Below, in pieces: positions 37,601 through 60,735 of a DNA stretch of 64,000 nucleotides (the first letter of the stretch is position 1; the number at the start of each line of letters is the position of its first letter). The position numbers and the translations under genes are program-made. Under the pieces are notes generated by a model. It searched no databases. It saw only the letters and a list, made by a program, of their open reading frames with translations, and was not told where the DNA came from. Source of the DNA: Verrucomicrobiia bacterium (GTDB lineage: Bacteria > Verrucomicrobiota > Verrucomicrobiia > Limisphaerales > UBA1319); contig OY760937.1 of assembly GCA_963664225.1 (NCBI GenBank), positions 5,216,001-5,280,000 of the forward strand, given 5' to 3'.

Positions 37601-38291
37601 ACTGCGGGTGGATGGGAGCACTCCTGCGCGGGATTTGATGCTGACGGCGGGAAGTCTGTTGAGCGGGACGGGGACAGTTCGACTAGAAGGTGCGAATCGA
37701 GTGGTGCTTACGGGAGATGTTATTTTGGGCATCGGTCTGCTCGACATGGCGGATGGCACCAGTATTACGGGGGCGTTTACGCTTACTATCGCAGCGGGGT
37801 CAATTCTCCAAATGGATCACTCGTCAACATTCCCCGGTTCAGTTACGGTGGATGGCGCGCTCAAGTTTACAAGTTCATCCGCCACTTTGACGATTATCGG
37901 CTCTCTGGCCCTGAACGCCTCAGGCACCTTGAACAATCCGGGCGCCATTCACGTGGGGTTATTCGTTAATGCCGTGACGGATAACTCCAACGTCATTGGT
38001 AATGTGCCCGTGCTGATTTCGTCCTTCCAGGGCCTGCTCCACATCGCCCTGTTCGGAAGCCCTGCATCCACAGATTCCGGGCTGCGCTCCATCCCGATCG
38101 CTGGTCGTAGCGAGGTCTTGCTGTGGTGGAACGCGCAAGCCCACATGCGGTTTACGGTGGAATCGAGCCTTGATTTGGTGCGCTGGCAGCAAGAATCCGT
38201 GCTGATCGAAGAACCGCTACCCGGTTCCTACCAGACGCATCTGGATCCGGGTAACCATCCCAGGCTGTTCTACCGTGTGCACGAACTGTAA
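25620..38291 (+). CDS. giant exported protein (~4223 aa): many carboxypeptidase-regulatory-like beta-sandwich repeats, Big_5-like Ig, TSP3-like repeats, 226-aa tandem repeats, C-terminal 'SLDLxxW...RLFYR' motif
   Basis: ATG at 25620 overlaps the upstream TGA (ATGA); N-terminal hydrophobic signal; repeated G(T/R)(V/I)xGxV...TDxxGxFxF modules; DTDGDG repeats at ~34440-34700. Confidence 0.9.
35312..37675 (+). repeat. intragenic tandem repeat, 678-bp unit, ~3.5 near-identical copies
   Basis: Units start at 35312, 35990, 36668 and 37346; only a few substitutions between copies. Confidence 0.95.
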
Positions 38292-45100: not shown

Positions 45101-46840
45101 GAGATGGCGCAAAGCCGCGTCCACTGTCGGGGTCGCCGCCGAAACCCGCCGCAGCCAGACCTTGCGCAACAGACGTGAATCGTAGCCAAGCAACACTGCG
45201 GCATCATCACTCTGCCCGAGCTCGGCCAAGACATGATAAGGCCCGATACGCGCCGTTTCACCGGCAAACGGAGGAAGTTCCAGTTGCGGCGGCATCCCGG
45301 GACGAACGGGCTGATCGGATTGAGCCAACACCCGGGTTCGGCTCCACAAATCGTGCAGGCCGGCAAATCCATTCCGCCGACGACAGGGATAAAATATTAG
45401 CAACTGGATGACGGTCGGTAGGAGCCAGGCAAAACTCATTTTGGGGTTGGGTGGATGCTGGGTCAGCCAGTCCGAACTGAAATAGGTCAGTGCCAGTGCT
45501 GGTAAAGATGAAAACCCGGAGAAAATCAGGACTCGCAGAAAGGCCTTCTTCACGTCAGGCGTATTTCCATCCAGATCCACCACTCGCAGCCGGCAGAGCA
45601 TTTTTCCCAGCGAAGCTCCCCGGATGCCTTCCATCAATCCAAAATACAAGATCACCATCCCGAAGGATATGAAGTAGGTGAGCAACCTCGTGCCACCGTG
45701 ATCGGGACTCATCATGGCGGTGAAGCTGCCGAAAACCATGAAGAACACCGCCCAATTCACAAGACTCAAGCCCAGATGATCAATGAGCCAGGCAACGAAG
45801 CGCAAAGACAGAGTCGCCGGCGATGGACTGGAGGATGCATAGGGCAACAAAGCGCGGCGCAATGCGGCATAACTGGCAAATCGCTCAGACGAATCTTTGT
45901 TGAGACAGTGGAGCACCGCCTGCGCCAGCCCCTTGGGAATTCCAGCCCGCAAACCGGCTGGAGATTCAGGCTTCTTTTCAAGGACAGTGACCAACAGTTG
46001 CACGATGTTGGGTGCCTCGAACGGCATCCGTCCAGTTAGCAGATAATACAACGTGACTCCGACAGAATAGATGTCCGAACGGACGGTGAGTTCCTCGCCG
46101 CGCAGTTGTTCGGGAGAAGAAAACGCCGGGGTGCCGAAGAGGGAACCCGATCCAGTCAGATTTGATTCCGTTCGGAGCGTCGTGGTGATGGAAAGACCGA
46201 AATCGCCAATCTTGATCGTCCCATCGGAATCGATGAAACAATTCGATGGCTTGATGTCACGGTGCAGAACACCTGCCTGCTGGGCTGCCTCCAGCCCGGC
46301 GATAATCTGGAGAATCACATCCACCGCCTCGGTGGCTGACAAAGGTCCGGACGCAACCACCCGGTCTCGCAAGGTGCCTCCGGCCACCAACTCCATGGCA
46401 ATCACCGGCGTGCCCGCGATTTCCTCCGTCCCGAAAACATAGACACTATTCGGATGATTGATCGAGGCCGCGATCTGCCCTTCGCGCAAAAACCGTTTGC
46501 GCGCTTCCGGCGAATCCAATGCCTGGCTCAAAATCTTTAGGGCCACACGGCGACCGGTTTCAAGATCATCCGCCTCGAATACCACGCCCATGCCGCCTTG
46601 TCCCAGCAAACGAATCAGCCGGTAATGTCCAAAATCTTCCCCCGGCTGGGGAATGCCTTTTAATGCCGCCGATTGAGGCAGGACGACCGTGTCCTCTGGT
46701 CCTGTTTGTGGTTGAGTTCCAAGGCCGGCTTGGAGCAGGCATTTGGGACAGAGGCTCGCAGGAAGCTGGGGCGGCAACTCCGCGCCGCATTTGGGGCATC
46801 GGCCTGGTTGTTGGTTCTGGCTCATGTTAGTTTCCAACAC
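42197..46840 (-). CDS. membrane Ser/Thr protein kinase with Zn-ribbon, RDD domains, degenerate second kinase-like domain and C-terminal thioredoxin-like domain (start may be 46825)
   Basis: CPKC..CPKC; LGQGGMG, VALK, HRDIKPSN, DFG, GTPAFSSPE; RFVAWLID/SLGKMLCRLRVV/GLHDLWSRTRV (RDD); GKYVVLIFWASWSEPS. Confidence 0.92.
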   Translation of the reverse strand: MLETNMSQNQQPGRCPKCGAELPPQLPASLCPKCLLQAGLGTQPQTGPEDTVVLPQSAALKGIPQPGEDFGHYRLIRLLGQGGMGVVFEADDLETGRRVALKILSQALDSPEARKRFLREGQIAASINHPNSVYVFGTEEIAGTPVIAMELVAGGTLRDRVVASGPLSATEAVDVILQIIAGLEAAQQAGVLHRDIKPSNCFIDSDGTIKIGDFGLSITTTLRTESNLTGSGSLFGTPAFSSPEQLRGEELTVRSDIYSVGVTLYYLLTGRMPFEAPNIVQLLVTVLEKKPESPAGLRAGIPKGLAQAVLHCLNKDSSERFASYAALRRALLPYASSSPSPATLSLRFVAWLIDHLGLSLVNWAVFFMVFGSFTAMMSPDHGGTRLLTYFISFGMVILYFGLMEGIRGASLGKMLCRLRVVDLDGNTPDVKKAFLRVLIFSGFSSLPALALTYFSSDWLTQHPPNPKMSFAWLLPTVIQLLIFYPCRRRNGFAGLHDLWSRTRVLAQSDQPVRPGMPPQLELPPFAGETARIGPYHVLAELGQSDDAAVLLGYDSRLLRKVWLRRVSAATPTVDAALRHLGRPGRLRWLNAKRSVDDSWDAYEAPTGQPLLGLISVKQDWGKIRFWLLDLAEELKTGVKDGSIPCVLSLDRVWITADGHAKLLDFPAPETNSSNKTKSPQLSNPQAFLRQVALSALEGQPLNVEQAHVSTLELPLPLYARSFFQRIESEPNARQVWERLKPLTGKVAAITRRRRWAMLVIALCFPVFVVLIQMVTGVLLRNSNSTEFAVLRNALTQVKPLETKGTNSVSQSSANEKDRQLEIYIAGRFRPLITNSVEWNGYTAQVFIQPAQRKLAEKIVQAYPKTTPAEFAEAKTTVESQFHIPPPRAQTSQAVFAIPFMLPMIIYASTLLFVVIPCFVAAILFRGGMAMRGLGVAVVGRNGRPSRMRTVWRNFIAWLPFLLSPMLLKAMENIVGAEWALIATTIILASITVISLALRRSLQDHLAQTWLVPDGAMPEIDPGLAGKRQTHIPWRPIAAGPGGLILVILLVQFSRSAIHSQKDSTTTSRSYNSAANQLTSPPCVALLPDGTPATNAWVWVGTEKDPSRGTPALDSFRPGDFYPHGMQKLLADFAGNFKLPAVPEDMLVVVTHPSGILVSTAGKMRKDTRVRLQPFSQVEGVLLSEGKPKPGAQIHISLFRERSSLHITYSGVSGADGRFHFTNLVAGEYRLYRVFMPRRRIDGGFTSYPSHQKIISVKPGETAKIQWGGDGRSVTGQAAPENPAVAVDWLNDSQSLELVRPSAATSVTKFVRDSWGLGTSAAERWKEARNARSYHLEFEEDGSFRAEDVPPGNYELRIKVTKPAPGPDPYLHEGELLGSLVQSVTIPEGKESYDLGRRMVPIKGETGGAVALLLNASLTTLEGQTLQLASLRGKYVVLIFWASWSEPSKNTLAALQKVRADFPAETGVQFMATSVDDDAESLRQTAASEGEGFTWARLSTAERASVTEAFDITALPAVLLVGPDGRIYARDLSAERLTTTLRRVLPHR

Positions 46841-46912: not shown

Positions 46913-47659
46913 CTAGGAACCAAAACAGGCGAATAGGAAGCGCAATTCCTCGTCGATTTCTTGCGGTGATGAAACTGTCTTGCCAATCTCGCCGCGAAGG
47001 ATTTCACGATAGCGGGCACGCAGGCGGTAAGCGGCTTGTTTCACAGACGCCTCCGTAAGATTCAGTTCCTGAGCGATTTCCGCGTAAGAACCGGCGGATT
47101 CCACCTGAGTGAGGCAGGCGCTCAAATGCTCGAACAGGTTGGCGCGCCCAGTATCGATATACTCCTCGCGCAACTGGGACATGGTGCGTTCGAGCAACAG
47201 CAATGCCCACTGCCGGTCAAATAGGATTTCCGGTGATAATTCCGTTTTCAGCTCCGCATCCAGCCGATCCTCCGCCATGGCCTGATCAATTTCCACGGCA
47301 GTCTGGAAACCTCCGCGCTTTTGCGCATGCTGCCAGTCCCATTCGTTCGCGAGAAAACGTTTTAGCGCCATGAGAAGAAAACTTCGGAATTTACCGCGAT
47401 CCCGCCGGGCATCCGCGACAAAGTTCTTTTCGAGCAGACGGGCAAAGAAACCTTGGGTCAAATCTTCCGCTTCGTGCGGAGTGCGCCCCTGCCGGCGGAT
47501 GAAACAATAAAGCGGATACCAATAAGTTTGGTAAAGTTGATGGAGTGCTGCACCGACTGAGTCCGAATTCGCCTTACCGGCGCGCAGCACCAGGCTCCAA
47601 TGCGTCGTCACGAAACGCCCATTGGCGCCCCAATCAGATTCAGAATCACCGGGTTTCAT
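46913..47659 (-). CDS. ECF sigma-70 factor, Ser/Thr-kinase-associated type
   Basis: FVTTHWSLV, YWYPLY, EAEDLTQGFF, GKFRSFLL, SYAEIAQELNLTEASVKQAAYRLR; directly upstream of the kinase. Confidence 0.9.
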   Translation of the reverse strand: MKPGDSESDWGANGRFVTTHWSLVLRAGKANSDSVGAALHQLYQTYWYPLYCFIRRQGRTPHEAEDLTQGFFARLLEKNFVADARRDRGKFRSFLLMALKRFLANEWDWQHAQKRGGFQTAVEIDQAMAEDRLDAELKTELSPEILFDRQWALLLLERTMSQLREEYIDTGRANLFEHLSACLTQVESAGSYAEIAQELNLTEASVKQAAYRLRARYREILRGEIGKTVSSPQEIDEELRFLFACFGS

Positions 47660-48708: not shown

Positions 48709-49866
48709 ATGCATCCAACAATTTTGAATCAATCCACACCGCAGGCTGCGGTCTCAGGGACGGCGCAACTGCCGGGGGCTCTGTTCGGGGGCACCGATGC
48801 ACTGGAGGATCCCGCAGGGGGCGTCTCTCTCTGGAACCGGTATCATCCACGTGAGATCCCGTTCTTCAAGGTGGCGTTAATGGACCAGCTACTGAAACGT
48901 CCCTACCACGCGGTGACGCTGGAAGGCCCATTCAACAATAAGCAGATATCCCGAGATTACCGCGAACAGACGTTCCGTTCTGAGACGTCCATCAATCGGG
49001 CGGGCACTCCATGTATCGAGCGGCTCCTGCTCTGTCTGGGCAATGGGGTGTTTGCCTATCTCGATGAATGCGGTGTCAAAGTTTACGCGCCCACACCACA
49101 GGCGGCGGAAGTGGCGGCTCAGGAATTTAGGCGCTATGTCAGGGCACCTGATGAGCGCAAACCGCATTTCCACGTCATCAGCATGACGCCCGAGGGGCCC
49201 TGTGCTGAATCAGTGCCCATCGAGCGGTCCGCACCCGTCACCACGGAGGACCTGGCCCTGAACTATGGTCAGGATTTTCCATTGTGGGAACAGCAATGGA
49301 GGGAGCGGATGCGCAAGGCTGCGAGTGGTCTGACGATCCTGTTCGGGCCCCCAGGGTGCGGGAAGACCTCGTTCCTCCGGGCACTGATGTCGCGCCTCAT
49401 AGAGACGGCCGTGTTCTATTTCGTCCCGCTTTCGGAAGCAGAGATGCTGTCCAATCCACGCTTCGTCAACTTCTGGATGCGACAGACCGCGCGTAACAAG
49501 GGGAAACAGAAAATTGCGATCCTGGAGGACGCGGACGAACTCCTTCTCATGAGGGACGAGGGCAGCCGGGCCAAGGTCAGCAACCTGCTCAACATCGCGG
49601 ACGGGTTCCTGGGTGAACATCTGAAGTTGCATGTGATCGCCACAAGCAATGAGCCGATCAGCAAGCTGGACCCGGCCATTGTGCGCCCGGGACGCCTGTT
49701 GGGGATGCGCGAGTTCCGGCGCTTGAATCGAGAGGAGGCCATCCGGCTGGCTGAAGCCAAGGGCCTGGTGGTCCCTGAACAGCGGGACTTTAGCCTCGCG
49801 GAGTTGTATTGCGGTCCCAACGACACCGCCCATGTGGACCAGCCGCAACGGATCGGATTCGCATAA
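48709..49866 (+). CDS. AAA-family ATPase
   Basis: GPPGCGKT (Walker A), ILEDAD (Walker B), LLNIADG, LDPAIVRPGRL (second region of homology). Confidence 0.88.
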   Translation: MHPTILNQSTPQAAVSGTAQLPGALFGGTDALEDPAGGVSLWNRYHPREIPFFKVALMDQLLKRPYHAVTLEGPFNNKQISRDYREQTFRSETSINRAGTPCIERLLLCLGNGVFAYLDECGVKVYAPTPQAAEVAAQEFRRYVRAPDERKPHFHVISMTPEGPCAESVPIERSAPVTTEDLALNYGQDFPLWEQQWRERMRKAASGLTILFGPPGCGKTSFLRALMSRLIETAVFYFVPLSEAEMLSNPRFVNFWMRQTARNKGKQKIAILEDADELLLMRDEGSRAKVSNLLNIADGFLGEHLKLHVIATSNEPISKLDPAIVRPGRLLGMREFRRLNREEAIRLAEAKGLVVPEQRDFSLAELYCGPNDTAHVDQPQRIGFA

Positions 49867-50349: not shown

Positions 50350-50631
50350 ATTGTGCCGGCGGCTTTGGGCAATTGCGCTAAACGGTCATCGTAAACCGGC
50401 GGCCGACGCGCGCACCACCCGCCCCAATTGACGCCACAGCAGATCGGCGCTCAGGAAAAGCAATGTCACTCCCTCCCCGAACATCAACCTGTCGGACTTC
50501 AAAGGAATAACCCCAGCCCTCAACCCTCCAATCAGTTCTGGAAGGAGGAGTAGGCTTTTCCCGAGGTGGCTTTACGCCAGCGATGCAGAGGGCGAAAAGC
50601 AAATCGTGACAAAAAGCATTCGAGATTAAAT

Positions 50632-51315
50632 TCAATGGCTCGGGGGTGCCAATCCCTCCTCTATTCTGCTCACACCACTTGCAATCGCATAGTGCGTCAG
50701 ACCCGCTATGGAGTGGATGTGCAGTTTATCCATCATGTTCTGGCGATGTTTTTCCGCGGTCTTGACGCTGATGCAAAGGTCGGCGGCGATCTGCTTGTTC
50801 GGAGCGCCTTCGGCGAGGAGTTGCAAAACCTCGATCTCACGACTGCTCAATGAGTCTGTTCGAGTGCATGATTGTGAGCCCTTCAGACACAATTTCCGGA
50901 ACTCTTGACGAATGTGGTTAGGAATGGAGCGGCTTAGAACAACGTGGCCGCTATTGGTTTCGCGTACGGCCGCGAGCAAGTCCTCCGTCGATGAGTCCTT
51001 GAGCAAATAGCCCGCCGCGCCGGCTTCCAACGCCTGCCGAATGGAGGGACCGTCGCTATGTGCCGAGAGTACCAGGACTTTCGCATTGGGAATTTCCCTC
51101 ATGATTTGCCGTGTTGCTTCCAGGCCGTTAAGCACAGGCATGGCGATGTCCATGATCACCACGGACGGCTCAAATTGCTTTGCCATTTGCACGGCCTGTC
51201 TGCCCGTCTCAGCTTCACCGACAACAGCGATGTCGTTCTCGGTTTCGAACAAGGCTCGCAGTCCTTCACGAACTACGCGGTGGTCGTCAACCACAAGTAT
51301 TCGAATTTGTCCCAT
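50632..51315 (-). CDS. NarL/FixJ-family response regulator (REC + LuxR HTH)
   Basis: ILVVDDH, IMDIAMP, GYLLK, LSSREIEVLQLLAEG...ISVKTAEKHR. Confidence 0.95.
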   Translation of the reverse strand: MGQIRILVVDDHRVVREGLRALFETENDIAVVGEAETGRQAVQMAKQFEPSVVIMDIAMPVLNGLEATRQIMREIPNAKVLVLSAHSDGPSIRQALEAGAAGYLLKDSSTEDLLAAVRETNSGHVVLSRSIPNHIRQEFRKLCLKGSQSCTRTDSLSSREIEVLQLLAEGAPNKQIAADLCISVKTAEKHRQNMMDKLHIHSIAGLTHYAIASGVSRIEEGLAPPSH

Positions 51316-51355: not shown

Positions 51356-51371
51356 AGCAGCACCTGTGCCA
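51356..51371 (-). promoter_or_regulatory. sigma54 promoter for the NarL-type regulator
   Basis: Minus strand TGGCACA-GGTG-CTGCT, ~40 nt before the ATG. Confidence 0.75.
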
Positions 51372-51413
51372 AGGCAGCCTGTGGGGCAAAGCCATCGGTT
51401 GAAGTAATCGCCA

Positions 51414-51447
51414 ATGCAATTTGCGATGTTTTGCTCGCAAGATGCAA
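51414..51447. promoter_or_regulatory. paired GCA-N3-TGC boxes (candidate activator sites)
   Basis: ATGCAATTTGCGA (51414-51426) and TCGCAAGATGCAA (51435-51447). Confidence 0.65.
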
Positions 51448-51603
51448 AACTGACGCCGAGCAGGGGGAGCTTTAGCGGCCCACGTGGCGAGCAGCAGGGA
51501 TGAGCCCGCCGCATTCGAGACAGGGTGTGCCAAGGGCTCGAACAATAGGTTGCTACTATTATTGGACCAAATCTGGCGGCAAGTTTCCGGCCGGAATATT
51601 GAC

Positions 51604-53016
51604 CTAAGGAGGCAATGTAACCATCGTCGCGGTCGGTAACGGGGGCCCGACGCTCGATTCCAATTCCCACTTCTTCATTCTGCGGTAAACCGTGGCCTGA
51701 TCGACGCCCAGGATTTGGGCGGCTTCGGCGACGGTTCGCGTCTGCGCCAGCACTCGCCGGATGTGCTGTTCTTCCAGTTGTTCCAAGGTTATGAGACCTC
51801 CGCTCTGATCCGGGCTGCCGCCATTAGTCCCGGGGCTGAGGTTCTGGCGAAGTTCGGTGGGCAGGTCGCCAGGAGTGATCCTGGAATCCCGTCCCAGGAT
51901 GACGGCGCGTTCTATGGCATTACGCAACTCGCGGAGGTTGCCGGGCCAGGCGTAAGAGTAGATGCTCGCGAGGGCTTCGTCGGTGAAACCGTCAAGCTGT
52001 CGCCCGCATCGGGCCGCGAAGTGCTTCGCATAATGTTCGGCGAAGCGCCTCAAGTCGGCGGGGCGTGAGCGCATCGGAGGTATTTGCACCGTGATAACAT
52101 TGAGTCGGAAATACAAGTCCTCACGGAAGGTTCCCTCCGCAACGCGCGCCTTGAGGTCGCGGTTGGTGGCGGCCAGCACCCGCACATTTGCCCTGCGCGT
52201 AACGTTTTCGCCCAAACGCTCATATTCGCGCTCCTGGAGCAGGCGGAGGAGTTTGGGTTGAATCTCCAGTGGGAGATCTCCAATTTCGTCCAGGAAGAGC
52301 GTGCCGCCCTCGGCGGCGGAGACCTTGCCCCAGTGATCTTTGACCGCCCCGGTGAATGAGCCCCGGACATGGCCGAACAGGTCGCTTTCCAGCAGTTCCC
52401 TGGAAAGACTTGGACAACTGACCGTGATGCATGGCTTGTCTGCCAGGTGGCTGTATTGATGAACCGCGCGCGCCGCCACGCTCTTGCCGGTGCCGCTTTC
52501 TCCGAGGATGAGAATTGACGCGGGGGTCTTCGCCGCGCGGAGGAGGATTTCCATGATCTCCTGCATGGCGGGCGCTGTGAAATCAAGGAGGCATTCAGCT
52601 TCTTGCAATTTGGTCTCGGTCACCTCCCGCTCCAGACGTTCTATCTTCTGGCCCATCTGGCTGAGACGCTGCAAACGCGCCAGCACGGTCAGGAACTGCT
52701 CATTCCGGAACGGCTTTTCGAGAAAGTCCGCCGCGCCGCGCCGCATGGCTTCGACCGCCGTCTTTACGTTGCCATCGGCGGTGAACATGACCACCGGCAG
52801 TTCGGGATTTGTTTTCTGAATTTCCGTCAACACATCCAGGCCGTTCTCCGGTCCGAGGTTAAGGTCCAGGAGCACCGCGTCAAATTTTTCCTCTTTCAGG
52901 CGCTTCAAGCCGAGTGGGCCGGAGGCTGCGCCTTCGGCGTAATGCTTCTCCTCTTCGATGAGTAAACAGGTTGCTTCTCGGAAGGTCTGGTCGTCGTCGA
53001 TTATCAGAAAATCCAT
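51604..53016 (-). CDS. sigma54-dependent response regulator (NtrC/AlgB-like; REC-AAA+-Fis HTH), 470 aa
   Basis: Start at MDFLIIDDD; GESGTGKS, ESDLFGHVRGSFTGA, GGTLFLDEIG, FREDLYFRLNV, WPGNLREL, AAQILGVDQATVYR. Confidence 0.95.
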   Translation of the reverse strand: MDFLIIDDDQTFREATCLLIEEEKHYAEGAASGPLGLKRLKEEKFDAVLLDLNLGPENGLDVLTEIQKTNPELPVVMFTADGNVKTAVEAMRRGAADFLEKPFRNEQFLTVLARLQRLSQMGQKIERLEREVTETKLQEAECLLDFTAPAMQEIMEILLRAAKTPASILILGESGTGKSVAARAVHQYSHLADKPCITVSCPSLSRELLESDLFGHVRGSFTGAVKDHWGKVSAAEGGTLFLDEIGDLPLEIQPKLLRLLQEREYERLGENVTRRANVRVLAATNRDLKARVAEGTFREDLYFRLNVITVQIPPMRSRPADLRRFAEHYAKHFAARCGRQLDGFTDEALASIYSYAWPGNLRELRNAIERAVILGRDSRITPGDLPTELRQNLSPGTNGGSPDQSGGLITLEQLEEQHIRRVLAQTRTVAEAAQILGVDQATVYRRMKKWELESSVGPPLPTATMVTLPP

Positions 53017-53024
53017 GATTGAGT

Positions 53025-54191
53025 CTAGGTTGCTGGCTGTGGGAGCCGAATGATGAGAGTGGCACCCTCGCCGGGGATGCCCTCGCACTCCAGTTGTCCA
53101 TTCATCGCTTGCACGAGCTTCAGTGCAATACTGAGTCCCAAACCGCTGCAGGGTTCTCCACCCGTAGGTCGGGCTGAGAGACGGGCGTAGCGTCGAAACA
53201 TCCGCACCCGATCTTGTGCGGTGAAGCCGGGACCGTGATCCCGGATCCGGCATTCGACGTGTCCGGTGCCCGGACGCACGGAAATGATGATCCGTCCGCC
53301 TGCCGGTGAGAACTTTATGGCGTTGGAGAGCAGGTTTCCGAGCGCCTGATCGAGGGCGGACGCATCGGCGAGCACAGTGGTGCCCTCGCTGGCGAGGTCC
53401 CTCTCCAGCACCAACTTCTTGCTTTGAGCAGCCTCTGAGAATTGGAGGAGGGCATGGGCTGCGGCATCTGAAAGCTTAAGTCTCGCCAGGTTAAGAGAGA
53501 CGCAGCGGTCGGCGGCGGCGTTGGCGAGAAACTGGGTTACGAAGGTCAGCAACTGCCCCCCGGAACGCAGGATGTTTTTCGACAGCATGGCGGCGCGCTC
53601 ATCGCCCAGATTCTTGATCCGCTTATCCAATACCTGGGAGCTTATCTGCATGCCGCCAAGATGATTCTTCAAATCATGCGCCAGCATGCCGAGCAATTCA
53701 TCCTTATCCTCGGCCAGTTGCTTAAGCCGGTCGCGCGCGCATTTTAAATCGAGCTGGGTTTTAATCCTCAAGATCAGCTCGGCCTGGTTAAAGGGTTTGG
53801 TGATGTAGTCCACGCCCCCAGCCTCGAGAGCTTGCACCACCAGATCTTTGTCGTCCGCCGCAGAAACAAATATCACGGGAATTTCCCGCCAATCAGGATT
53901 CGCGCGCAGCCGCCGACAAACTTCGCATCCGTCCATCTCCGGCATCAGCAAATCGAGGAGAATTAAATCAGGCATGCGAACCGCCAACCGCTTAAGGGCG
54001 GTCGGCCCATCGAGCGCAGGGATGATTTCGTATCCCAACTTGCCCAGGACTGAACCAACGACCTGAATATTGGTCTGTTGGTCGTCCACCACCAGGATCC
54101 GGGCCAGCGCCAGTGTGCTGGCTTCGGGATTGAGCTGAGTCGTCGGAGCCTGAGGGGACGTGGGCAAAATCATTTCGGCAGGCTCTTGCAT
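53025..54191 (-). CDS. hybrid REC-histidine kinase (cytoplasmic)
   Basis: ILVVDD...LLDLLMP; MLAHDLKNHL H-box; NLLSNAIKFS, DHGPG, GLGLSI. Confidence 0.92.
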   Translation of the reverse strand: MQEPAEMILPTSPQAPTTQLNPEASTLALARILVVDDQQTNIQVVGSVLGKLGYEIIPALDGPTALKRLAVRMPDLILLDLLMPEMDGCEVCRRLRANPDWREIPVIFVSAADDKDLVVQALEAGGVDYITKPFNQAELILRIKTQLDLKCARDRLKQLAEDKDELLGMLAHDLKNHLGGMQISSQVLDKRIKNLGDERAAMLSKNILRSGGQLLTFVTQFLANAAADRCVSLNLARLKLSDAAAHALLQFSEAAQSKKLVLERDLASEGTTVLADASALDQALGNLLSNAIKFSPAGGRIIISVRPGTGHVECRIRDHGPGFTAQDRVRMFRRYARLSARPTGGEPCSGLGLSIALKLVQAMNGQLECEGIPGEGATLIIRLPQPAT

Positions 54192-54192
54192 A

Positions 54193-56340
54193 TTAATTGG
54201 GCTCCGACAATCGTTTCACCAGATCTGGAAACCGATTAACTTGTTCCTCAAGCTCGACCACTTCATAGGCATCGGCCCGCTGAGCCAGAGCCTGAGCGTA
54301 TTCTGCCAGCGCCGGGCAAGGCCAGCTTTCCGCGAGGGCTTTTAGTTTCCCGGCAAAGGCTTTGGTTTCGTTGATCGCCAGATTGTCGCGGATCGTCGGC
54401 CATTCCTCCTTGCTCAGGCGGTGCAGCTCTGCGACGAATTCTGGGGGCGACGGGGACGGAGTGAGCGGGGGCGCGTTCGTGGTCCGTTCCGACGGCTCCC
54501 CCGGCTGTGCGCGGCGGGGCAGGAAGTGCGACACTTCGGTGAACAACTCGTGCTTCGAGAATGGCTTGCGCAAATGAGCATTGAACGTCTCCCGCATCCC
54601 GGCTTCGTCCTGGAGCTGCGTCGAGGCCGTGACTGCGATCACGGGGACCGCTTCCAGGCCGGGCGATTTGCGGATTTGGTTGAAAGCCTCCCGCCCGTCC
54701 ATGCCGGGCATACGGAGGTCGAGCAGGATGAGGTCTGGCCGAAGGGTTCGCGCCTTGCTGACTGCCTCGAGACCATCGCTGCCGAATTCAAGCTTGTGGT
54801 CTGAGCCTGCGAACATACTCGCAATGAGTTGGCGATTCTCCCCGTTGTCATCCACCACGAGCACCAAGGCTGGCTCCAGTTGGTTGAAGTCGCCGCCCGC
54901 CTCCGAGGATTGTGGCTCATTCGCCGGGAGGCGCATTGAGATCGGGATGTTCGGAAATCGCAGATGGAAGGTGGCGCCGTGGCCCAACGTGCTCGTCGCG
55001 AAAATGGTTCCGCCCATGGCCTCGGTCAAGCGCCTGACAATGGCAAGACCCAGGCCCGTGCCTTGCGTCTCTTTCTCGCGATTTGCACCGGCCTGGACGA
55101 ACGGCTTGAAAATGACCTCCAGTTTGTCTGGCGGAATGCCGACGCCGGTGTCCTCCACTTGGATGTTCAACACAATCTGGCTGCTGCTTTCCCCCTTCTC
55201 CCAATCAAGGCGCACATCAATACTACCGCGGTCGGTGAACTTCACGGCGTTGCCCACTAGGTTGACCATGATCTGGCGCAATCGGATGCGATCCAGCAAC
55301 AGGGAGCGGGGCAGATCGTCCGGGACCTTGCACTCCAGCTTAATGTTTTTCCGCAAGGCGGGTTCGGCGAAAATGGTTTGGATGAATTCGCCGATCTCCC
55401 GTGGGTTGGTGGGCTCCGGTTGTATCGTCAGCACGCCCGCCTCGATCTTCGACATGTCGAGAATGTCGTTGATAAGTTGCAGCAGCGAGGAGGCGCTGGA
55501 CCGGATGGATTTCAGATACTGGCGGTGCCTCGGCTCGTGCAGTTCGCCGTCGAGCAGCTCACTGAAGCCGAGAATGGAGTTCATGGGCGTGCGGATTTCG
55601 TGGCTCATGTTTGCGAGGAAGACGGTCTTCTCCTGGCTGTTGCGCTCGGCCTGGAGTTTGGCCTCAACCAGGGCTTGCTCGCGTTCCTTGTGCTGCAACA
55701 TCACACGAGAAAGCCAGAAGGCGAAGACGCCGGCCCAAATCCCCAACATCCCGGCGGCCAGGCTGGTCAAGCTGGCGCGAAGCAGTTCCTTTCGCGTGGA
55801 CTCGAGGTGAATCGCAACCAGGTGCCCCGGCGCCTGGCGAATCTGGCCCAACTCCGTCCGCAAATCGTCCAAGAGGTCCTTGCTCACACCCGTGGCGACA
55901 ATCCCTTTGGCGGCTGTAAAGCCTTGTGTCCTGCGCGTGTTGTTGACACTCTCGAACCGGTCGAGAATTACCGAAATCCGGTCCCGTAAACCAGCCACGC
56001 GCCGGAGCATCTCGGGATCGTTCCGCACAATGTCCACCAAATGGTCAAGCTCGATGGCCAGATTGGTCCGGCCTGCAAGCATCGGTACCAGAAACGCTTC
56101 GTCGCCGGTGATGACAAAACCGCGTTCACCGGTCTCACAATCAACAAGCAATTTCAGCACCTCTTGAGAAGAGACCTCGACGTCGAACGCATGCCGAGAC
56201 GCAGTCAGTCTGCGGGAAAGCTGCACCCATGTAACCAACGCGAGAACCACGCTCCCAATTGAAAGTGACAGCCATAGGACCACCACCGTCTTGTAAACGC
56301 TTCTGTTTGGTTGTCGCGGCATTTTGTTGGTTCCTATCAA
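54193..56340 (-). CDS. membrane hybrid sensor kinase, CHASE3-HisKA-HATPase-REC (start may be 56322)
   Basis: TM-LVDCETGERGFVITGDEAFL-TM; FLANMSHEIRTPMN; NLVGNAVKFT; GTGLGL; VLVVDD...LDLRMP. Confidence 0.93.
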   Translation of the reverse strand: MIGTNKMPRQPNRSVYKTVVVLWLSLSIGSVVLALVTWVQLSRRLTASRHAFDVEVSSQEVLKLLVDCETGERGFVITGDEAFLVPMLAGRTNLAIELDHLVDIVRNDPEMLRRVAGLRDRISVILDRFESVNNTRRTQGFTAAKGIVATGVSKDLLDDLRTELGQIRQAPGHLVAIHLESTRKELLRASLTSLAAGMLGIWAGVFAFWLSRVMLQHKEREQALVEAKLQAERNSQEKTVFLANMSHEIRTPMNSILGFSELLDGELHEPRHRQYLKSIRSSASSLLQLINDILDMSKIEAGVLTIQPEPTNPREIGEFIQTIFAEPALRKNIKLECKVPDDLPRSLLLDRIRLRQIMVNLVGNAVKFTDRGSIDVRLDWEKGESSSQIVLNIQVEDTGVGIPPDKLEVIFKPFVQAGANREKETQGTGLGLAIVRRLTEAMGGTIFATSTLGHGATFHLRFPNIPISMRLPANEPQSSEAGGDFNQLEPALVLVVDDNGENRQLIASMFAGSDHKLEFGSDGLEAVSKARTLRPDLILLDLRMPGMDGREAFNQIRKSPGLEAVPVIAVTASTQLQDEAGMRETFNAHLRKPFSKHELFTEVSHFLPRRAQPGEPSERTTNAPPLTPSPSPPEFVAELHRLSKEEWPTIRDNLAINETKAFAGKLKALAESWPCPALAEYAQALAQRADAYEVVELEEQVNRFPDLVKRLSEPN

Positions 56341-56560
56341 AACTCGTTCGTGGAAATCATCCGCGCGAACAAACTACAACGTCGAAAGCAGAATGTCTAA
56401 TTGGAGCCCCAGCGATTCTCAATATGGCGATTCCCACGGAATCTCCGCTCGCTGAGCCAACAAACTCCCTTTTGCGAAACTGTCGTGCCCTGAATCTGCA
56501 GCAAAGTCGCCCAAAAGCCTGGGGCGCGGACCTCCTGTCTTCCGAAGGTTGTGGTCCTAA

Positions 56561-56848
56561 TTAGAATTCAAATCGAGAGAAGTTCTCCCACCTTGGACAA
56601 ATTGGAGATTCGGTGGCTTTTACGATGACGAGCAGCGGTATCGCCAAAAGCGCGCCGGGCATATCCCAGAGCCCGGCGAAGAGCATCAGCGAAACAAAAA
56701 TCACAAGCGGATTTAAAGCGTGACCGCGGACATGCCGACGATCGATCTAAAACAGGGAATGAAGTTCAGACCAGCGGCGCCCCAGCCACCCATAGCGGCG
56801 TTGGGCTGGCCCAGCAGATGGAGGCTGATTCCGACCACATTTAAGCCT
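56561..56848 (-). pseudogene. AI-2E-family transporter remnant (internal deletion and frameshift)
   Basis: LLGQPNAAM...LNFIPCF followed, in another frame, by LNPLVIFVSLMLFAGLWDMPGALLAIPLLVIVK; N-terminus missing. Confidence 0.75.
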
Positions 56849-56863
56849 CTTTTTAGATTCTTC

Positions 56864-57019
56864 TCAGCCAAGTTTTTTGCCTTGAATCAGATTCACGACA
56901 ATCATGACCAAGGCGACTACCAGAAGGATGTGGATAAATCCCCCTAGCGTGTAAGAGGAGGCCAATCCCAAGACCCACGCAATAATCAGGACGAGGGCAA
57001 CAGTATAAAGGCTATTCAA
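56864..57019 (-). CDS. lmo0937-like small membrane protein (51 aa; not in the ORF track)
   Basis: LYTVALVLIIAWVLGLASSYTLGGFIHILLVVALVMIVVNLIQGKK; TTG start assumed. Confidence 0.8.
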   Translation of the reverse strand: MNSLYTVALVLIIAWVLGLASSYTLGGFIHILLVVALVMIVVNLIQGKKLG

Positions 57020-57090
57020 TTATGGCCAAAGGTTTGAAGAAGTGAGAAAGGAAGTTCCCAGCCGCAGACACACAAGGACGGAACGCTGCA

Positions 57091-57705
57091 TCACGGCGCA
57101 GAATCAATTATTAACCGCCTGCGCGGGGATGAGGAAGCCCCCGCCTTTGGCCATTGGTAGTGCAGGATGTCCCCGACACCCTCTGGAGCTGGGGCCGGGC
57201 ATTCACGGCGGGACCCGATGTCCTGTGCCCCGGCAGCTTTAAAGATTGCCTTGGCCCGCGCTATTTCACGCGCACTCTCGGCATGGACCGAGATGAGGAC
57301 GATGTCGGGCTTGATCTTCCCCGCAAAGCGCGTGGCCTCATATTCAGGGATGCGCGTCCCAATTAGAGCGCCGACGATGCCGCCAATTGCCGCGCCGACG
57401 GCTGCGGAACTCAACGTTGCAAAGGCGGGGCCCACGGCGATGAGTGGCTCGATGCCTGGAAGGGGCAGGGTGCCCACACCAAGCAGCCAGCCCAGCGCTC
57501 CGCCCAGAATCCCCCCGGTCGCCGCCCCAGCGGAAGCTCCTTCCGGGGCTTTGGTGTGTTTTGTATGAGCAAAGTCCCTCGACGTAGTTTTGTCGGGAAA
57601 CATGGTTGAGATATCGTCATGGGTGAAGCCCGCAGCCAGGAGATCTCGTATTAGGATCGCCTGGCTGCGAGTGGTGGCCATACAGAATGCCGAGGTTTTT
57701 GCCAT
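57091..57705 (-). CDS. glycine-zipper general-stress-type membrane protein, paralog of 62174..62836
   Basis: RDFAHTKHTKAPEGA...GGALGWL...GTRIPEYEATRFAGK; start at MAKTSAFC by alignment with the paralog. Confidence 0.8.
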   Translation of the reverse strand: MAKTSAFCMATTRSQAILIRDLLAAGFTHDDISTMFPDKTTSRDFAHTKHTKAPEGASAGAATGGILGGALGWLLGVGTLPLPGIEPLIAVGPAFATLSSAAVGAAIGGIVGALIGTRIPEYEATRFAGKIKPDIVLISVHAESAREIARAKAIFKAAGAQDIGSRRECPAPAPEGVGDILHYQWPKAGASSSPRRRLIIDSAP

Positions 57706-57793
57706 ATTAAGTTCTTTCTTTGGTATTCGCGCTTGATCAAGATCTCGGAGAATTTCGCCGGTCCACATGATTTCAACGCCAAGCTGTTGCTTT

Positions 57794-57809
57794 AGCTAAG
57801 GCTGTGCCA
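57794..57809 (-). promoter_or_regulatory. sigma54 promoter (leftward)
   Basis: Minus strand TGGCACA-GCCT-TAGCT. Confidence 0.7.
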
Positions 57810-57888
57810 TTATTCAGCAATCCATACAAACTATTGCTTCGTAGTGACTTATGTTAATATAACTCACCGGTCCTGCCCATTTTTTAAT

Positions 57889-57931
57889 ATGCATAATGCA
57901 AGTGGCAGAACATTCGTTCCGCAATTTGCGA
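57889..57931. promoter_or_regulatory. paired GCA-N3-TGC boxes
   Basis: ATGCATAATGCAA (57889-57901) and CCGCAATTTGCGA (57919-57931). Confidence 0.65.
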
Positions 57932-58103
57932 GAAACCTGGCGAACCGGCAGAGAAGATTTCCGTTGCCCCGAGCCGTGGCCAGGAGCATGAATAATCACG
58001 CGACGATCTTGGTTATTGTTTGAGCGGAATTTCACCAACTTCCGGGGGACGCCTTCACGAGACCAGGCAGGCTTCCAATCGTCCGTGACTTCCAGCAACG
58101 GAC

Positions 58104-58148
58104 TTGCAAAATGCAATATGCAGCCCTTTAAAGCGCCGCAAAGTGCAA
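58104..58148. promoter_or_regulatory. paired GCA-N3-TGC boxes
   Basis: TTGCAAAATGCAA (58104-58116, with overlapping ATGCAATATGCAG) and CCGCAAAGTGCAA (58136-58148). Confidence 0.65.
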
Positions 58149-58222
58149 GAGATCTACCGCTAAAAACCCACGAAATCATTGCATTTATCGCGTATATGAA
58201 TGGGTTTCTTAAACAAATCCGC

Positions 58223-58238
58223 TGGCACGGTTCCTGCA
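58223..58238 (+). promoter_or_regulatory. sigma54 promoter for the csbD cluster
   Basis: TGGCACG-GTTC-CTGCA. Confidence 0.8.
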
Positions 58239-58299
58239 AAGGCAATTTCAGTTGCGCAAACGTGCGCAATCCAAAGAAACAATAACGAAATCTAAATCC

Positions 58300-58494
58300 A
58301 TGAATACGCTCGAACTGAAAGGTGATTGGAACATTGCAAAGGGCAAACTTAAACAGAAGTATGCTCAACTGACCGATGACGACCTAAAATTCGCGAAAGG
58401 TCAAGAGGAGGAATTGCTGGGACGTATCCAGAAGCGAACCGGCAAGACCCGGGCGGAAGTGGAACGCGCCGTTAAGGATTGTGCCGGGTGCTAA
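58300..58494 (+). CDS. csbD: CsbD/YjbJ-family stress protein (64 aa)
   Basis: KGDWNIAKGKLKQKYAQLTDDDL...GQEEELLGRIQKRTGKTR. Confidence 0.92.
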   Translation: MNTLELKGDWNIAKGKLKQKYAQLTDDDLKFAKGQEEELLGRIQKRTGKTRAEVERAVKDCAGC

Positions 58495-58585
58495 AGCCCC
58501 CGATCCGCCGCTCCCAGGAAAATCTGGGGGGCGGCGAACCTTAAGGTTACGGAAAACCTTATTCGGACATAACATGCAAGAAATT

Positions 58586-58735
58586 ATGAAAACCACACAA
58601 TTCAATCGCCTCATCATCGTAATCCTCGCCGTGGCGTTGTTCGGTCTCGCCACCGCGGGTTGTAAACACACCGCGAACGGTGCGGGGAAGGATATCGAAA
58701 AGGTGGGCGAGAAGATTCAAGAGAAGACCCAATAG
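58586..58735 (+). CDS. entericidin A/B-like small lipoprotein (49 aa)
   Basis: Lipobox TAGC followed by KHTANGAGKDIEKVGEKIQ. Confidence 0.85.
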   Translation: MKTTQFNRLIIVILAVALFGLATAGCKHTANGAGKDIEKVGEKIQEKTQ

Positions 58736-58857
58736 CTTAGGGTCCGAAAATGCGCGAATAGACCAAAGAAAGGCTTGTCGTCCGAACCTGTGCCTCCCCG
58801 ACGGTCGTTAACGGACGCAGGACTGGCAGAATCAGTGAGCATAAGAACAAAACCGAA

Positions 58858-59232
58858 ATGAAACGCACCGGCAACATGGTAGAACCCAAACGTGGGCGAT
58901 CTGCCAGCACATTCAACAATCCCTGCGCGAGGCCACACAGGTATGCTCAGATCGATACCAGCAAAGGCCAGGCCGGGACGCTCATTGAATTCCGGATTGA
59001 GGCGCCGAATGCGCACTCGGTCAAACTCGCTGCGGACTTCACGGATTGGGAGAAAGCCGCGATCAAACTGGTTAACAAAGGCAATGGAATCTGGGGGATG
59101 CAGTTGCCGTTGCCTCCGGGACGTTACGCCTACCGCTTCCTGATTGATGGGGACTGGCACGACGACCCGCGTTGCGCCGGGCGCGTTCCGAATGACTTCG
59201 GCACGAGCAATTCAGTGATTGAAGTTGTTTGA
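58858..59232 (+). CDS. stand-alone glycogen-binding (CBM48/AMPK-beta-like) domain protein
   Basis: APNAHSVKLAADFTDW...GIWGMQLPLPPGRYAYRFLIDGDW...NDFGTSNSVIEV. Confidence 0.88.
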   Translation: MKRTGNMVEPKRGRSASTFNNPCARPHRYAQIDTSKGQAGTLIEFRIEAPNAHSVKLAADFTDWEKAAIKLVNKGNGIWGMQLPLPPGRYAYRFLIDGDWHDDPRCAGRVPNDFGTSNSVIEVV

Positions 59233-59351
59233 ACACGAAGGTGAGTGCAGCAAACCCTGTCGGCTCGGCCTGGATTAGACACGATGCAAAATCCGAAGCT
59301 CACCATTTTGTGGACCCGTGAGCGCCCCGTGTCTGTTCCAGCGTTTCTCTT

Positions 59352-60212
59352 TCACTTTATCGTAAATCTAAAAGTGTTTGTTCGTGCTTCTTCCTTTAGA
59401 ATGACGGTCACGAATTTGCCTGCGGATTCATTGAGTCGGCTCTTGAACGCTGCGTAACTTCTCGCATCGGCCTCGTCGTCGGACACCATTTCCGGGCTAT
59501 CACCCGTTTTACTCGGCATGGGAGGCGGTGCGGGGCGCGCGCTGGCTGCCATTTCCCCCCAAGTCCTTGGCGACAGGGAAGCATTAAGTCCCATGAATTC
59601 CCGGGTTGGAATGGCAAAGCTCACGTTCTGTGCGTCCACCTTGGTCCACGAGACAATGCCGATGACTTCACCACGATTGTTGAGAATTGGGCCCCCACTA
59701 TTTCCCGGAGAAATGGGACAGGAAAGCTGATACTGTAGAAATCCGTTTATGCTCCGAACCTGGCTGATCAAACCGTCGCCGATGCTAAAATCAAAGCCTT
59801 TGGGTGCGCCAATCACGTAAGCCCGAGCCGCCACAGATTGCAGGTCGTTGCATAAAATCGCCTGCCGCCGGGGCAGTTTCTTTTCCAGCTTCAATAACGC
59901 CAGATCGCGGCCGCCGTTATGGTCAATGCACCCGATCACTCTCACGCGTTGTCCGTCAGCGAACACGGCCCAAACGGAACGCGCATCTGCAATGACGTGC
60001 CAGGCTGTCAGCGCCACATCATTTCCGCGGGCAAGCACAGCGCTGCCTACAAACCTCTTCCCGCTCTGGTTTTCCACTTCCAACGTCATCACCGAAGGCA
60101 GCACTTTTTGGTAGAGTTTTTCGGGCTCTAACGCCGCCTGCGCATGCTCCGGAATTCCCGCATGAATCAGCCATAAGCCGAGCCAGACAATTTGATGCAA
60201 CTTACAAGTCAC
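59352..60212 (-). CDS. exported trypsin-like (S1C/HtrA-like, no PDZ) serine protease
   Basis: LTAWHVI, DLALLKL, ISPGNSGGP catalytic triad motifs; signal peptide. Confidence 0.9.
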   Translation of the reverse strand: MTCKLHQIVWLGLWLIHAGIPEHAQAALEPEKLYQKVLPSVMTLEVENQSGKRFVGSAVLARGNDVALTAWHVIADARSVWAVFADGQRVRVIGCIDHNGGRDLALLKLEKKLPRRQAILCNDLQSVAARAYVIGAPKGFDFSIGDGLISQVRSINGFLQYQLSCPISPGNSGGPILNNRGEVIGIVSWTKVDAQNVSFAIPTREFMGLNASLSPRTWGEMAASARPAPPPMPSKTGDSPEMVSDDEADARSYAAFKSRLNESAGKFVTVILKEEARTNTFRFTIK

Positions 60213-60588
60213 GATTGTTATATCGTCACTTCACGCCGTTCCTGAAGTGCGCATTGTTCATACTCCTGGTAAATCTTATCAGGGGGTAGCGGACACGTGA
60301 CAGACGCCCCGCGGCAGATTCACCGCGTGAGTGTGGGTGGAAGGCAGTGAACCGCAGACCCAGACGGTCAGTGCCACCCATGGCAGAACACCGTTCGCAG
60401 CTTATTCGACGCGCCTCCCTTTTTTTCCGAACAAAATGGCATTATTACCATAATGACTCACGAGAACCGATCGCGATCAGGAGTTTCCTTGTGGCCGCCA
60501 GGAAAACGCTTGGTTTCAATGGTAAAGTGCTAGCCCGGAACGAATTGAAAAACCGAACTCGTGCGTGAACTCTCTTTCACTAGAAGAA

Positions 60589-60630
60589 GTGCAGAATGCG
60601 ACACATACTCGGCTTTTTCGCAAATTGCAG
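60589..60630. promoter_or_regulatory. paired GCA-N3-TGC boxes
   Basis: GTGCAGAATGCGA (60589-60601) and TCGCAAATTGCAG (60618-60630). Confidence 0.65.
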
Positions 60631-60719
60631 ATGCTTTACGTTCACCAACATTTCCCCTTGGTGCCTACCGACAGCTTAATCTGCTTATAATCAATAGGAT
60701 AGAGCGCCACACGTTAGGT

Positions 60720-60735
60720 TGGCACTGCGTTAGCT
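60720..60735 (+). promoter_or_regulatory. sigma54 promoter for the PRC/BON operon
   Basis: TGGCACT-GCGT-TAGCT. Confidence 0.72.

Follow-up and report, generated by a model that had tools for sequence, protein, structure and literature searches.

A block of small genes in a Verrucomicrobiia genome raises the question of whether stress-protection proteins can be controlled by sigma-54 and a dedicated activator, and how far such control would reach. The block lies in a 64,000-nucleotide stretch of contig OY760937.1 (hereafter the window), which covers positions 5216001-5280000 of a genome assembled as a single contig (5.78 Mb, 56% GC). Verrucomicrobiota are abundant soil bacteria, and we know of almost nothing on their regulatory genetics. 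The protein families of the block are usually under RpoS, SigB, or EcfG in E. coli, Bacillus, and alphaproteobacteria; the RpoS regulon of E. coli includes yjbJ/CsbD, ecnB, osmY/BON, yciF/DUF892, elaB/DUF883, and dps. To our knowledge, little has been established about the control of CsbD, DUF883/ElaB, Dps, YciF, and BON proteins outside Proteobacteria and Firmicutes. An initial annotation of the window proposed that the lineage runs its general stress response through sigma-54 and a locally encoded activator. We consider it likely that the stress-protection proteins of the block form a compact sigma-54 regulon, which brings its own two-component control.

Sigma-54-type promoter sites and paired palindromes

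The window was scanned with the sigma-54-type pattern TGGCAC-N5-YWGCW (TGGCACNNNNNYWGCW), and the expected number of matches was taken from 100 dinucleotide-preserving shuffles. Four matches were found against 0.27 expected, and none of the 100 shuffles reached four. These are promoter 1 (TGGCACAGGTGCTGCT, 51371..51356, minus strand), promoter 2 (TGGCACAGCCTTAGCT, 57809..57794, minus strand), promoter 3 (TGGCACGGTTCCTGCA, 58223..58238, plus strand), and promoter 4 (TGGCACTGCGTTAGCT, 60720..60735, plus strand), the same four -24/-12 sites that the initial annotation had listed. All of them lie within 9.4 kb, against the 0.27 expected for the whole 64 kb. They are intergenic and oriented toward a gene start 26-90 nt downstream, and their GG and GC elements are 10 bp apart, which is the sigma-54 arrangement. 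The -12 regions of promoters 1-4 (CTGCT, TAGCT, CTGCA, and TAGCT) differ from the consensus TTGCW. The genome carries one copy of rpoN (Sigma54_DBD 1.7e-59, in a 515-residue open frame). These features support the view that the four sites have the anatomy of sigma-54 promoters. Sigma-70-type matches in the block were at chance level (6 versus 6.8 expected), including a weak one at 57857..57830, and sigma-70 promoters were rejected as a competing explanation because such matches did not exceed the shuffles. Terminator matches in the same scan (21 versus 17.3 expected) were not used. Genome-wide, the sigma-54-type pattern occurs 25 times, approximately the number expected from base composition by hand arithmetic. 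Because the promoter pattern alone is not enriched genome-wide, the case rests on the co-occurrence of promoters with upstream boxes.

Each promoter is preceded by at least two palindromic GCA-N3-TGC boxes. Enhancer 1 (51415..51446) has the boxes TGCAATTTGCG (51415) and CGCAAGATGCA (51436), 21 bp apart, and the gap to promoter 1 is 43 bp. Enhancer 2 (57890..57930) has TGCATAATGCA (57890) and CGCAATTTGCG (57920), 30 bp apart, and an 80-bp gap to promoter 2. In enhancer 3 (58105..58147), TGCAAAATGCA (58105) and CGCAAAGTGCA (58137) are 32 bp apart, an additional overlapping box TGCAATATGCA (58112) follows 7 bp after the first, and the gap to promoter 3 is 75 bp. Enhancer 4 (60590..60629) has TGCAGAATGCG (60590) and CGCAAATTGCA (60619), 29 bp apart, and a 90-bp gap to promoter 4. 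The start-to-start spacings of 21, 30, 32, and 29 bp agree with those given in the initial annotation. The box pairs start 54-131 bp upstream of their promoters, and in nine of nine instances the box can be lengthened at both ends by one base, giving the 11-mer YGCA-N3-TGCR.

The initial annotation had suggested that the motif should co-locate with sigma-54 sites genome-wide, and this was examined by pattern scans. Single boxes are not enriched in the window (13 versus 8.4 expected); nine of these 13 fall in the four clusters directly upstream of promoters 1-4. When GCA-N3-TGC was sought within 250 bp upstream of the 25 promoter-pattern sites of the genome, only four sites, all in the block, carried any box. 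The genome has 507 exact boxes, yet only five box-pair clusters, defined as exact boxes 7-45 bp apart (7 pairs; ~1.7 pairs expected), and four of the five are those of promoters 1-4. The fifth cluster, at genome positions 5490953-5491002, has a 39-bp spacing and no TGGCAC-type site listed nearby. With a looser -24/-12 pattern, 22 of 1320 genome sites had at least one exact box upstream, against 19.8 expected; two or more boxes were present at promoters 1-4 only. A relaxed scan, requiring one exact box and one with at most one mismatch at a spacing of 19-33 together with the looser -24/-12 pattern, recovered promoters 1-4 and one weak candidate at genome position 4803176, whereas the reversed genome, used as control, gave one pair and none with a promoter. 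From these genome-wide scans, the box pair is closely associated with sigma-54-type sites and does not extend beyond the block in this genome.

We then turned to relatives that encode orthologs of the NtrC-type activator of the block (51604..53016, minus strand). Scanning one genome per species gave 80 ortholog loci (1.23 Mb; activator identity 65-74%), which contain 50 box-pair clusters in 33 loci, and 28 of the 47 loci of at least 15 kb have one. Box density in these loci is far above background. A YGGCAY-N5-NNGCW site lies 15-190 bp away on at least one side of 45 of the 50 clusters and on both sides of 21; the two-sided clusters would be divergent promoters sharing an enhancer. Counted by sides, 66 of 100 bear a sigma-54-type site, compared to 1.5% for random positions in the same loci. 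The -24 element is CGGCAC in many relatives, and GGCAY is followed by G in 72% of sites, as in the canonical sigma-54 consensus. The symmetrised box consensus is tTGCA-awt-TGCAa.

The spacing of the elements is also conserved. Box spacing in relatives peaks at 30-32 bp (37 of the 60 spacings of at most 60 bp), with a minor group at 19-25. The gaps between the proximal box and the promoter cluster near 43, 54, 65, 76, and 87 bp; for the 61 gaps measured, an 11-bp period gives a vector strength of 0.60. The corresponding gaps in this genome are 43, 75, 80, and 90. Helical phasing with the promoter is what a looping enhancer predicts. Taken with the co-occurrence, this phasing supports an enhancer-like behavior of the paired palindromes.

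The genes behind these sites were called as the first open reading frame (ORF) of at least 45 amino acids starting 25-260 nt downstream of the promoter. This yielded 72 references, of which 70 ORFs were scanned, one ORF running off its locus and one duplicate being left out. The 70 comprise CsbD (14), DUF883 (8), ferritin/Dps-like (5), and DUF5670 (5) proteins; CBM48, holin-X-like, AI-2E transporter, and iron permease proteins (2 each); one DUF892 protein; one CHASE3 kinase; six singletons; and 22 without a Pfam family. Five ortholog-bearing genomes were also scanned in full. Four of them have 2-3 exact pairs each, and eight of their ten pairs have a sigma-54-type site, some far from the activator gene, preceding CsbD (2), DUF883, a HlyD-type protein, and a cell-wall hydrolase. 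The fifth genome is dominated by an unrelated repeat: a GC-rich 34-bp unit at 10 places, in which two copies of an 11-mer 12 bp apart match the loose box-pair pattern accidentally. The conserved targets suggest that the regulon is real, small, and centered on CsbD and DUF883.

Candidate activator, proposed phosphorelay, and putative target genes

Three regulatory genes on the minus strand form the center of the block. The first gene of this apparent operon (54193..56340) encodes a hybrid sensor histidine kinase with Pfam matches to CHASE3 (1.2e-24), HisKA (1.3e-22), HATPase_c (7.5e-30), and REC (8.7e-21). It is followed by a REC-HisKA-HATPase_c protein (53025..54191; Pfam), probably the second phosphorelay step, and by the activator itself, a 470-residue NtrC-type enhancer-binding protein with Sigma54_activat (1.4e-63), REC (1.1e-25), and HTH_8 (4.3e-08) domains, which is the candidate box binder. 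Its PF00158 match scores 214 bits over residues 227-389 of the long ORF. The protein has the Walker A motif GESGTGKS, the loop GSFTGA as a variant of GAFTGA, LFLDEIG with DEIG, and a receiver aspartate at residue 51 in LLDLNL, which is conserved. Asp51, Walker A, the GSFTGA loop, and the helix-turn-helix (HTH) are kept across 76 activator orthologs; at least 95% of the 77 sequences in the alignment (this genome and the 76 orthologs) share G-x-FTGA, position x excepted. An AAA+ domain with contact loop and Walker A and B motifs, a receiver, and a Fis-type HTH, all features of the NtrC-type response-regulator class, are present. The initial annotation called the activator AlgB-like. An NtrC-type activator is indeed encoded there, but the label lacks specific support, since the best NCBIfam models are AtoC (370.9 bits, cut-off 714), NtrC (358.1, cut-off 558.6), and a PEP-CTERM regulator (353, cut-off 502.6), all far below their cut-offs. 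ZraR scores 311.7 (cut-off 760), and AlgB is absent among the 25 NCBIfam matches listed for this protein. Both kinases are syntenic with the activator in relatives: a homolog with at least 60% coverage is found by tblastn in 58 of the 80 loci for the CHASE3 kinase and in 72 of the 80 (median identity 60%) for the REC-kinase.

The arrangement suggests a phosphorelay. The membrane CHASE3 hybrid kinase and its REC-kinase partner would sense a signal, with envelope, osmotic, or desiccation stress as our guess, and the phosphoryl group would pass from the kinase's own receiver through the REC-kinase to Asp51 of the adjacent activator. The phosphorylated activator would then assemble on tandem tTGCA-awt-TGCAa palindromes two or three helical turns apart, with the nearer box 43-90 bp from the promoter on a fixed helix face. 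Hydrolysis of ATP by the activator would open sigma-54 RNA polymerase at the four TGGCAC-N5-YWGCW promoters, which are predicted to fire as four transcription units.

Unit 1 would lead with a REC plus LuxR/GerE-type response regulator (50632..51315, minus strand; REC 1.6e-30, GerE 1.7e-19; NarL/UvrY-like in NCBIfam, below cut-offs), the first gene after promoter 1. This promoter begins 233 bp past the stop codon of the activator gene, with enhancer 1 lying between. The regulator, which the initial annotation did not connect with a promoter, may relay the response further as a possible second regulatory tier; only paralog-level matches to it were found in the 80 ortholog loci. An 85-residue ORF overlapping its stop (50378..50635, minus strand), probably part of the same operon, had no Pfam or NCBIfam match and no tblastn match in the 80 loci. 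Unit 2 would consist of a 225-residue glycine-zipper membrane protein (57091..57768, minus strand; Gly-zipper_Omp 1.4e-4, below the curated cut-off; alternative start at the second ATG, residue 22; homolog in 7/80 loci) and, likewise in addition to the initial annotation, a 51-residue DUF5670 small membrane protein behind it (56864..57019, minus strand; 1.6e-14; homolog in 23/80 loci).

On the plus strand, unit 3 would start with a 64-residue CsbD-family protein (58300..58494; Pfam 1.5e-12, PRK10428 2.7e-13 in NCBIfam; homolog in 26/80 loci). Next come an entericidin-like small lipoprotein (58574..58735; Entericidin 5.1e-06 at the C-terminus), whose ORF opens at 58481, whose probable start is the ATG at 58574, and whose signal ends in the lipobox LATAGC, and a 124-residue CBM48/AMPK-CBM domain protein (58858..59232; Pfam; homolog in 9/80 loci). 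Unit 4 would contain a 437-residue secreted protein with a signal-like N-terminus, PRC-barrel matches in two stretches (2.1e-27), and a BON domain (5e-13) at 60825..62138; a 220-residue protein with a weak YflT-like N-terminus (62174..62836; 1.9e-3, below cut-off; homolog in 7/80 loci, 70% identity); and a DUF892 protein, which is YciF-type ferritin-like (62847..63509; 1.5e-54; homolog in 12/80 loci). A 70-residue ORF overlapping the end of the DUF892 gene (63487..63699) presumably belongs to this operon and had no Pfam or NCBIfam family and no tblastn match in the 80 loci. The target families named in the initial annotation (CsbD, entericidin-like, CBM48, PRC-BON, glycine-zipper, and YciF-like) were all recovered with Pfam. 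In this genome, the module comprises four adjacent promoters and about a dozen genes.

Several further observations concern the surroundings. The stretch 56516-56838 (minus strand), which lies between the DUF5670 gene and the kinase gene, holds two short ORF fragments; they are in different frames and match residues ~238-381 of relatives' AI-2E transporters (E 4e-10, 41-54% identity over 37-41 residues), with the N-terminal two thirds missing; in the relatives, these transporters sit behind an equivalent enhancer and promoter. The fragments look like a degraded AI-2E gene. Right of the window, at genome positions 5280032-5283110 and directly after the promoter-4 operon, an intact AI-2E gene is followed by IS200-type (Y1) and DDE transposase genes, which could mark the boundary of an accessory block. 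Derivation of the fragments from this intact local gene was considered and rejected, as they show no match to it. The closest relatives of the block genes are in Pedosphaera, Limisphaerales, and Verrucomicrobiia metagenome bins, and the block's GC content (51-61% versus 56% for the genome) gives no foreign-DNA signal.

Elsewhere in the window, a 4291-residue ORF with internal repeats occupies 25416-38291 (plus strand), with shadow ORFs at a 678-bp period around 36.2-37.9 kb, and a 1547-residue ORF occupies 42197-46840 (minus strand). A 248-residue ORF at 46913-47659 (minus strand), 3 kb left of the block, neighbors the gene of an AAA ATPase (48709-49866) and matches regions 2 and 4 of sigma-70 weakly, below the cut-offs (ECF-like). 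In the genome at large, the plus strand of the contig has 1,677,666 G and 1,561,421 C, a net skew of ~3.6%. A complete circular chromosome whose replication arms are equal would not usually show such a skew; the arms may be very unequal, or the assembly may be peculiar. In genome regions 1590113-1593828 and 5778493-5782209, two activator genes have equal scores (248.3 bits, 548-residue frames), and two identical promoter-like sites (TGCG at -12), each with a box 146 bp upstream, lie in mirror orientation, which suggests a large inverted duplication near one contig end.

Alternative readings and the reach of the module

We further considered which protein binds the boxes. This genome has four of its five box-pair clusters within 8 kb of the activator gene, and 190 bp separate one of these clusters from the gene's stop codon. 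In 40 taxonomic relatives, activator orthologs were sought at E<=1e-100 among the best candidates of each genome (at most 39 scored); a box pair was present in all three ortholog-bearing genomes (66, 53, and 51% identity) versus 5 of the 37 others. Pairs with an 18-22 bp gap occurred in 8 of the 40 genomes, and the reversed control gave 7 of 41 with this genome included, so the loose Y/R box pattern is near background outside ortholog-bearing genomes. In one relative (G013), ~900 bp separate a box pair from the gene of an activator with 51% identity. In another (G342), a box pair and promoter precede the gene of a 51%-identical activator that shares GSFTGAVKDxWGK. Strict TGCA pairs in a sample of the phylum were found in 20 of 400 other genomes versus 6 for the control. 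Most of these matches are probably unrelated, because only 8 of the 24 sites have a sigma-54 site. One of these 8 is the G342 site. Behind the others are genes of MdoG, a HAMP sensor, a CBS-domain ABC ATPase, a baeRF protein, and a protein resembling alanine dehydrogenase, which hints at no more than an osmotic flavor.

Several points weigh against a sigma-54 regulon under the adjacent activator. The promoter pattern is not enriched across the genome, and a lone site is weak evidence. No exact box pair occurs within 10 kb in 47 of the 80 ortholog loci, and 19 of these are among the 47 loci that reach 15 kb or more; 5 of the 50 clusters have no promoter-like site. The statistics of phasing and co-occurrence, with their nominal p-value, are overstated, because related genomes and orthologous promoters are not independent. 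Genes behind the promoters in relatives were called by a crude first-ORF rule. The stress role is deduced from family names only, and the glycine-zipper and YflT matches fall below curated cut-offs. Moreover, the boxes were assigned to the activator by proximity, in a genome with 17 full AAA+ activator genes, 16 besides this one, and in some relatives (G041 and G042) box pairs are on other contigs or far from the ortholog. Finally, the TGCA half-sites are only 7 bp apart from center to center; the classical NtrC dyad is wider, and such a spacing is unusual for dimers of Fis-type HTH proteins. The near-expected 25 genome sites and the weak sigma-70-like match in the block would suit a reading in which the motifs are chance matches or parts of sigma-70 promoters and no sigma-54 regulon exists. 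That reading is scarcely credible when four sites crowd into 9.4 kb, all intergenic, correctly oriented, and paired with boxes, when the arrangement recurs with phasing at 33 other loci, and when sigma-70 matches do not exceed shuffles. The assignment by proximity, the distant box pairs, the ortholog loci lacking an exact pair, and the tight half-site spacing would suit real sigma-54 promoters whose boxes are bound by another activator, a repressor, or an architectural protein, while the adjacent activator acts elsewhere. We regard this as distinctly unlikely. Pairs keep company with the activator gene in this genome, in 33 of 80 ortholog loci, where boxes are far denser than background, in the three ortholog-bearing relatives, and, with activators of 51% identity, in two other families; the phasing of boxes and -24 element along the helix and the use by divergent promoters also fit an enhancer. 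Its lack of conservation in the relatives' loci excludes the LuxR-type regulator as the conserved binder. Binding of the boxes by the activator, fed by its two kinases, is what we infer, and stress would be the signal.

A broader reading, close to the proposal of the initial annotation, makes sigma-54 and the activator the lineage's master general-stress control in place of RpoS, SigB, or EcfG, with the LuxR-type regulator extending it to many sigma-70 genes. Hallmark stress families are certainly present, with CsbD, DUF892, BON, entericidin-like, and DUF5670 proteins under the module here and DUF883 and Dps-like ferritin in relatives. According to PMC9912610, YflT, CsbD, and bacterioferritin are SigB-dependent in B. 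cereus. A transcription factor behind promoter 1 makes a cascade possible, and in distant Verrucomicrobiota the box pair and promoter stand before the ABC ATPase with CBS, MdoG, HAMP sensor, and activator genes, which hints at a wider stress or osmotic role. None of the four sigma factors with region 3 scores as the SigB/F/G type (TIGR02980 122.6 and 98.4 bits, cut-off 234). However, only four adjacent promoters in 5.78 Mb carry the module, in place of a large dispersed regulon, and other genomes show only 2-3 exact box pairs each. The 500 bp upstream of a second csbD gene (genome ~2290949) contain neither a sigma-54 site with a score of 16.5 or more nor a box with up to one mismatch. The genome encodes ~37 sigma-70-family proteins, including a FliA-type factor and about 30 of ECF size. 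Among them, a 364-residue group-2 sigma factor (genome ~5178072-5179166, 37 kb to the left of the window) is a candidate for a conventional stress or stationary-phase sigma factor; it reaches 305 bits with the RpoS model, whose cut-off is 378.7, and is also near but under the cut-off of the RpoD model. Activator orthologs (E<=1e-100) were not found in nine of nine same-family genomes, namely one of the same genus (93% complete) and eight others, and just 3 of 31 other families in the order yielded any; in relatives, the LuxR-type regulator does not keep its place next to the activator. We therefore find the master-control reading rather improbable. The proposal of the initial annotation is thus only partly supported: a sigma-54 and activator-controlled set of stress proteins stands, whereas its role as the general stress response of the lineage is not supported and is partly contradicted.

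The compact, local regulon instead looks like an accessory unit shared patchily among Verrucomicrobiota. The patchy activator orthologs, the transposases on the right flank, and the degraded AI-2E gene make the module look accessory and rearranging. DNA comparison of the 15-kb block with five same-family genomes gave only short matches to conserved kinase and AAA+ segments. The block's flanks gave 0 and 1 match to the same-genus genome, so that no empty site is demonstrable, and the absence of the block at the DNA level is uninformative because the flanks also fail to match.

The findings provide a concrete circuit for Verrucomicrobiota, consisting of a putative sensor kinase and activator, an 11-13 bp site with a tandem spacing of 2-3 turns, and four promoters, and dozens of genomes show footprints that support this circuit. 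Without an activator, sigma-54 promoters stay silent, so tight on/off control of the stress proteins would be expected, in contrast to the graded sigma competition of RpoS-type systems. The motif pair may be used to predict stress genes in uncultured Verrucomicrobiota, with the caveat that the module is small and patchy. As a bolder idea, which we hold to be possible though doubtful, a CHASE3 phosphorelay, NtrC-type activator, and sigma-54 would be the master switch of stress and dormancy protection in many Verrucomicrobiota, with the tTGCA-awt-TGCAa tandem enhancer as its signature. If so, it would add a further general-stress paradigm beside RpoS, SigB, and EcfG and place a CsbD/DUF883/Dps/DUF5670 core under promoters of an ATP-gated, all-or-none class. 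The switch would, in some lineages, reach osmoprotection genes (ProV-like ABC ATPase, MdoG) and second-tier regulators such as the LuxR-type protein.

Comparison with known systems

The cargo of the module resembles that of established stress regulons. The B. cereus SigB regulon includes YflT, CsbD, bacterioferritin, and KatE (PMC9912610), and PMC7083833 places an alphaproteobacterial general stress regulon under EcfG. As in the RpoS, SigB, and EcfG regulons, equivalent protein families would be co-regulated as a stress or stationary-phase set, and as in B. cereus, where the input passes through the hybrid kinase RsbK, a hybrid kinase would provide the input. RsbK may have a CHASE3 domain as well. 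Unlike those regulons, the module would use sigma-54 with an ATP-dependent activator and no dedicated sigma-70-family factor with partner switching, and it is tiny and local, with four promoters, and patchy among relatives.

Among sigma-54 surveys, a D. vulgaris regulome (PMC4641369) and a 2025 cross-phylum survey with position-specific scoring matrices (PMC12316311) likewise assigned activators to promoters computationally and describe shared upstream motifs and some stress-related targets in other phyla, such as chaperones, UspA, and MscS. In a text search of the cross-phylum survey, CsbD, Dps, and "general stress" had no occurrence and Verrucomicrobiota had three, at least one of them on motility in Opitutia. 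A full-text literature search, whose coverage mostly excludes subscription journals, returned no paper on sigma-54 control of CsbD-type genes or of Verrucomicrobia stress genes.

The closest solved structures to the activator are of the Aquifex aeolicus NtrC1 type (PDB 4l4u and 1ny5), to which REC, AAA+, and DNA-binding domains align over the full length (E 9.6e-93). The match is by sequence only, and, as far as tested, the activator of the block shares neither target genes nor DNA site with them. The circuit itself is most similar to the enteric NtrC-glnAp2 system, which also has an activator of REC, AAA+, and Fis-type HTH under a histidine kinase, a GG-N10-GC promoter with two or more palindromes ~50-130 bp upstream, separated by a few helical turns, and dependence on the face of the helix. 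It differs in the 11-13 bp tTGCA-awt-TGCAa palindrome, compared to a 17-bp NtrC dyad, in the CHASE3 hybrid kinase with its extra REC-kinase, in targets for stress protection rather than nitrogen assimilation, and in the score of the activator on the NtrC model, which is below the cut-off as given above. The architecture thus appears to be the textbook NtrC-type enhancer scheme, and what sets it apart is the binding site, the CHASE3 input, and, above all, the stress-protein cargo.

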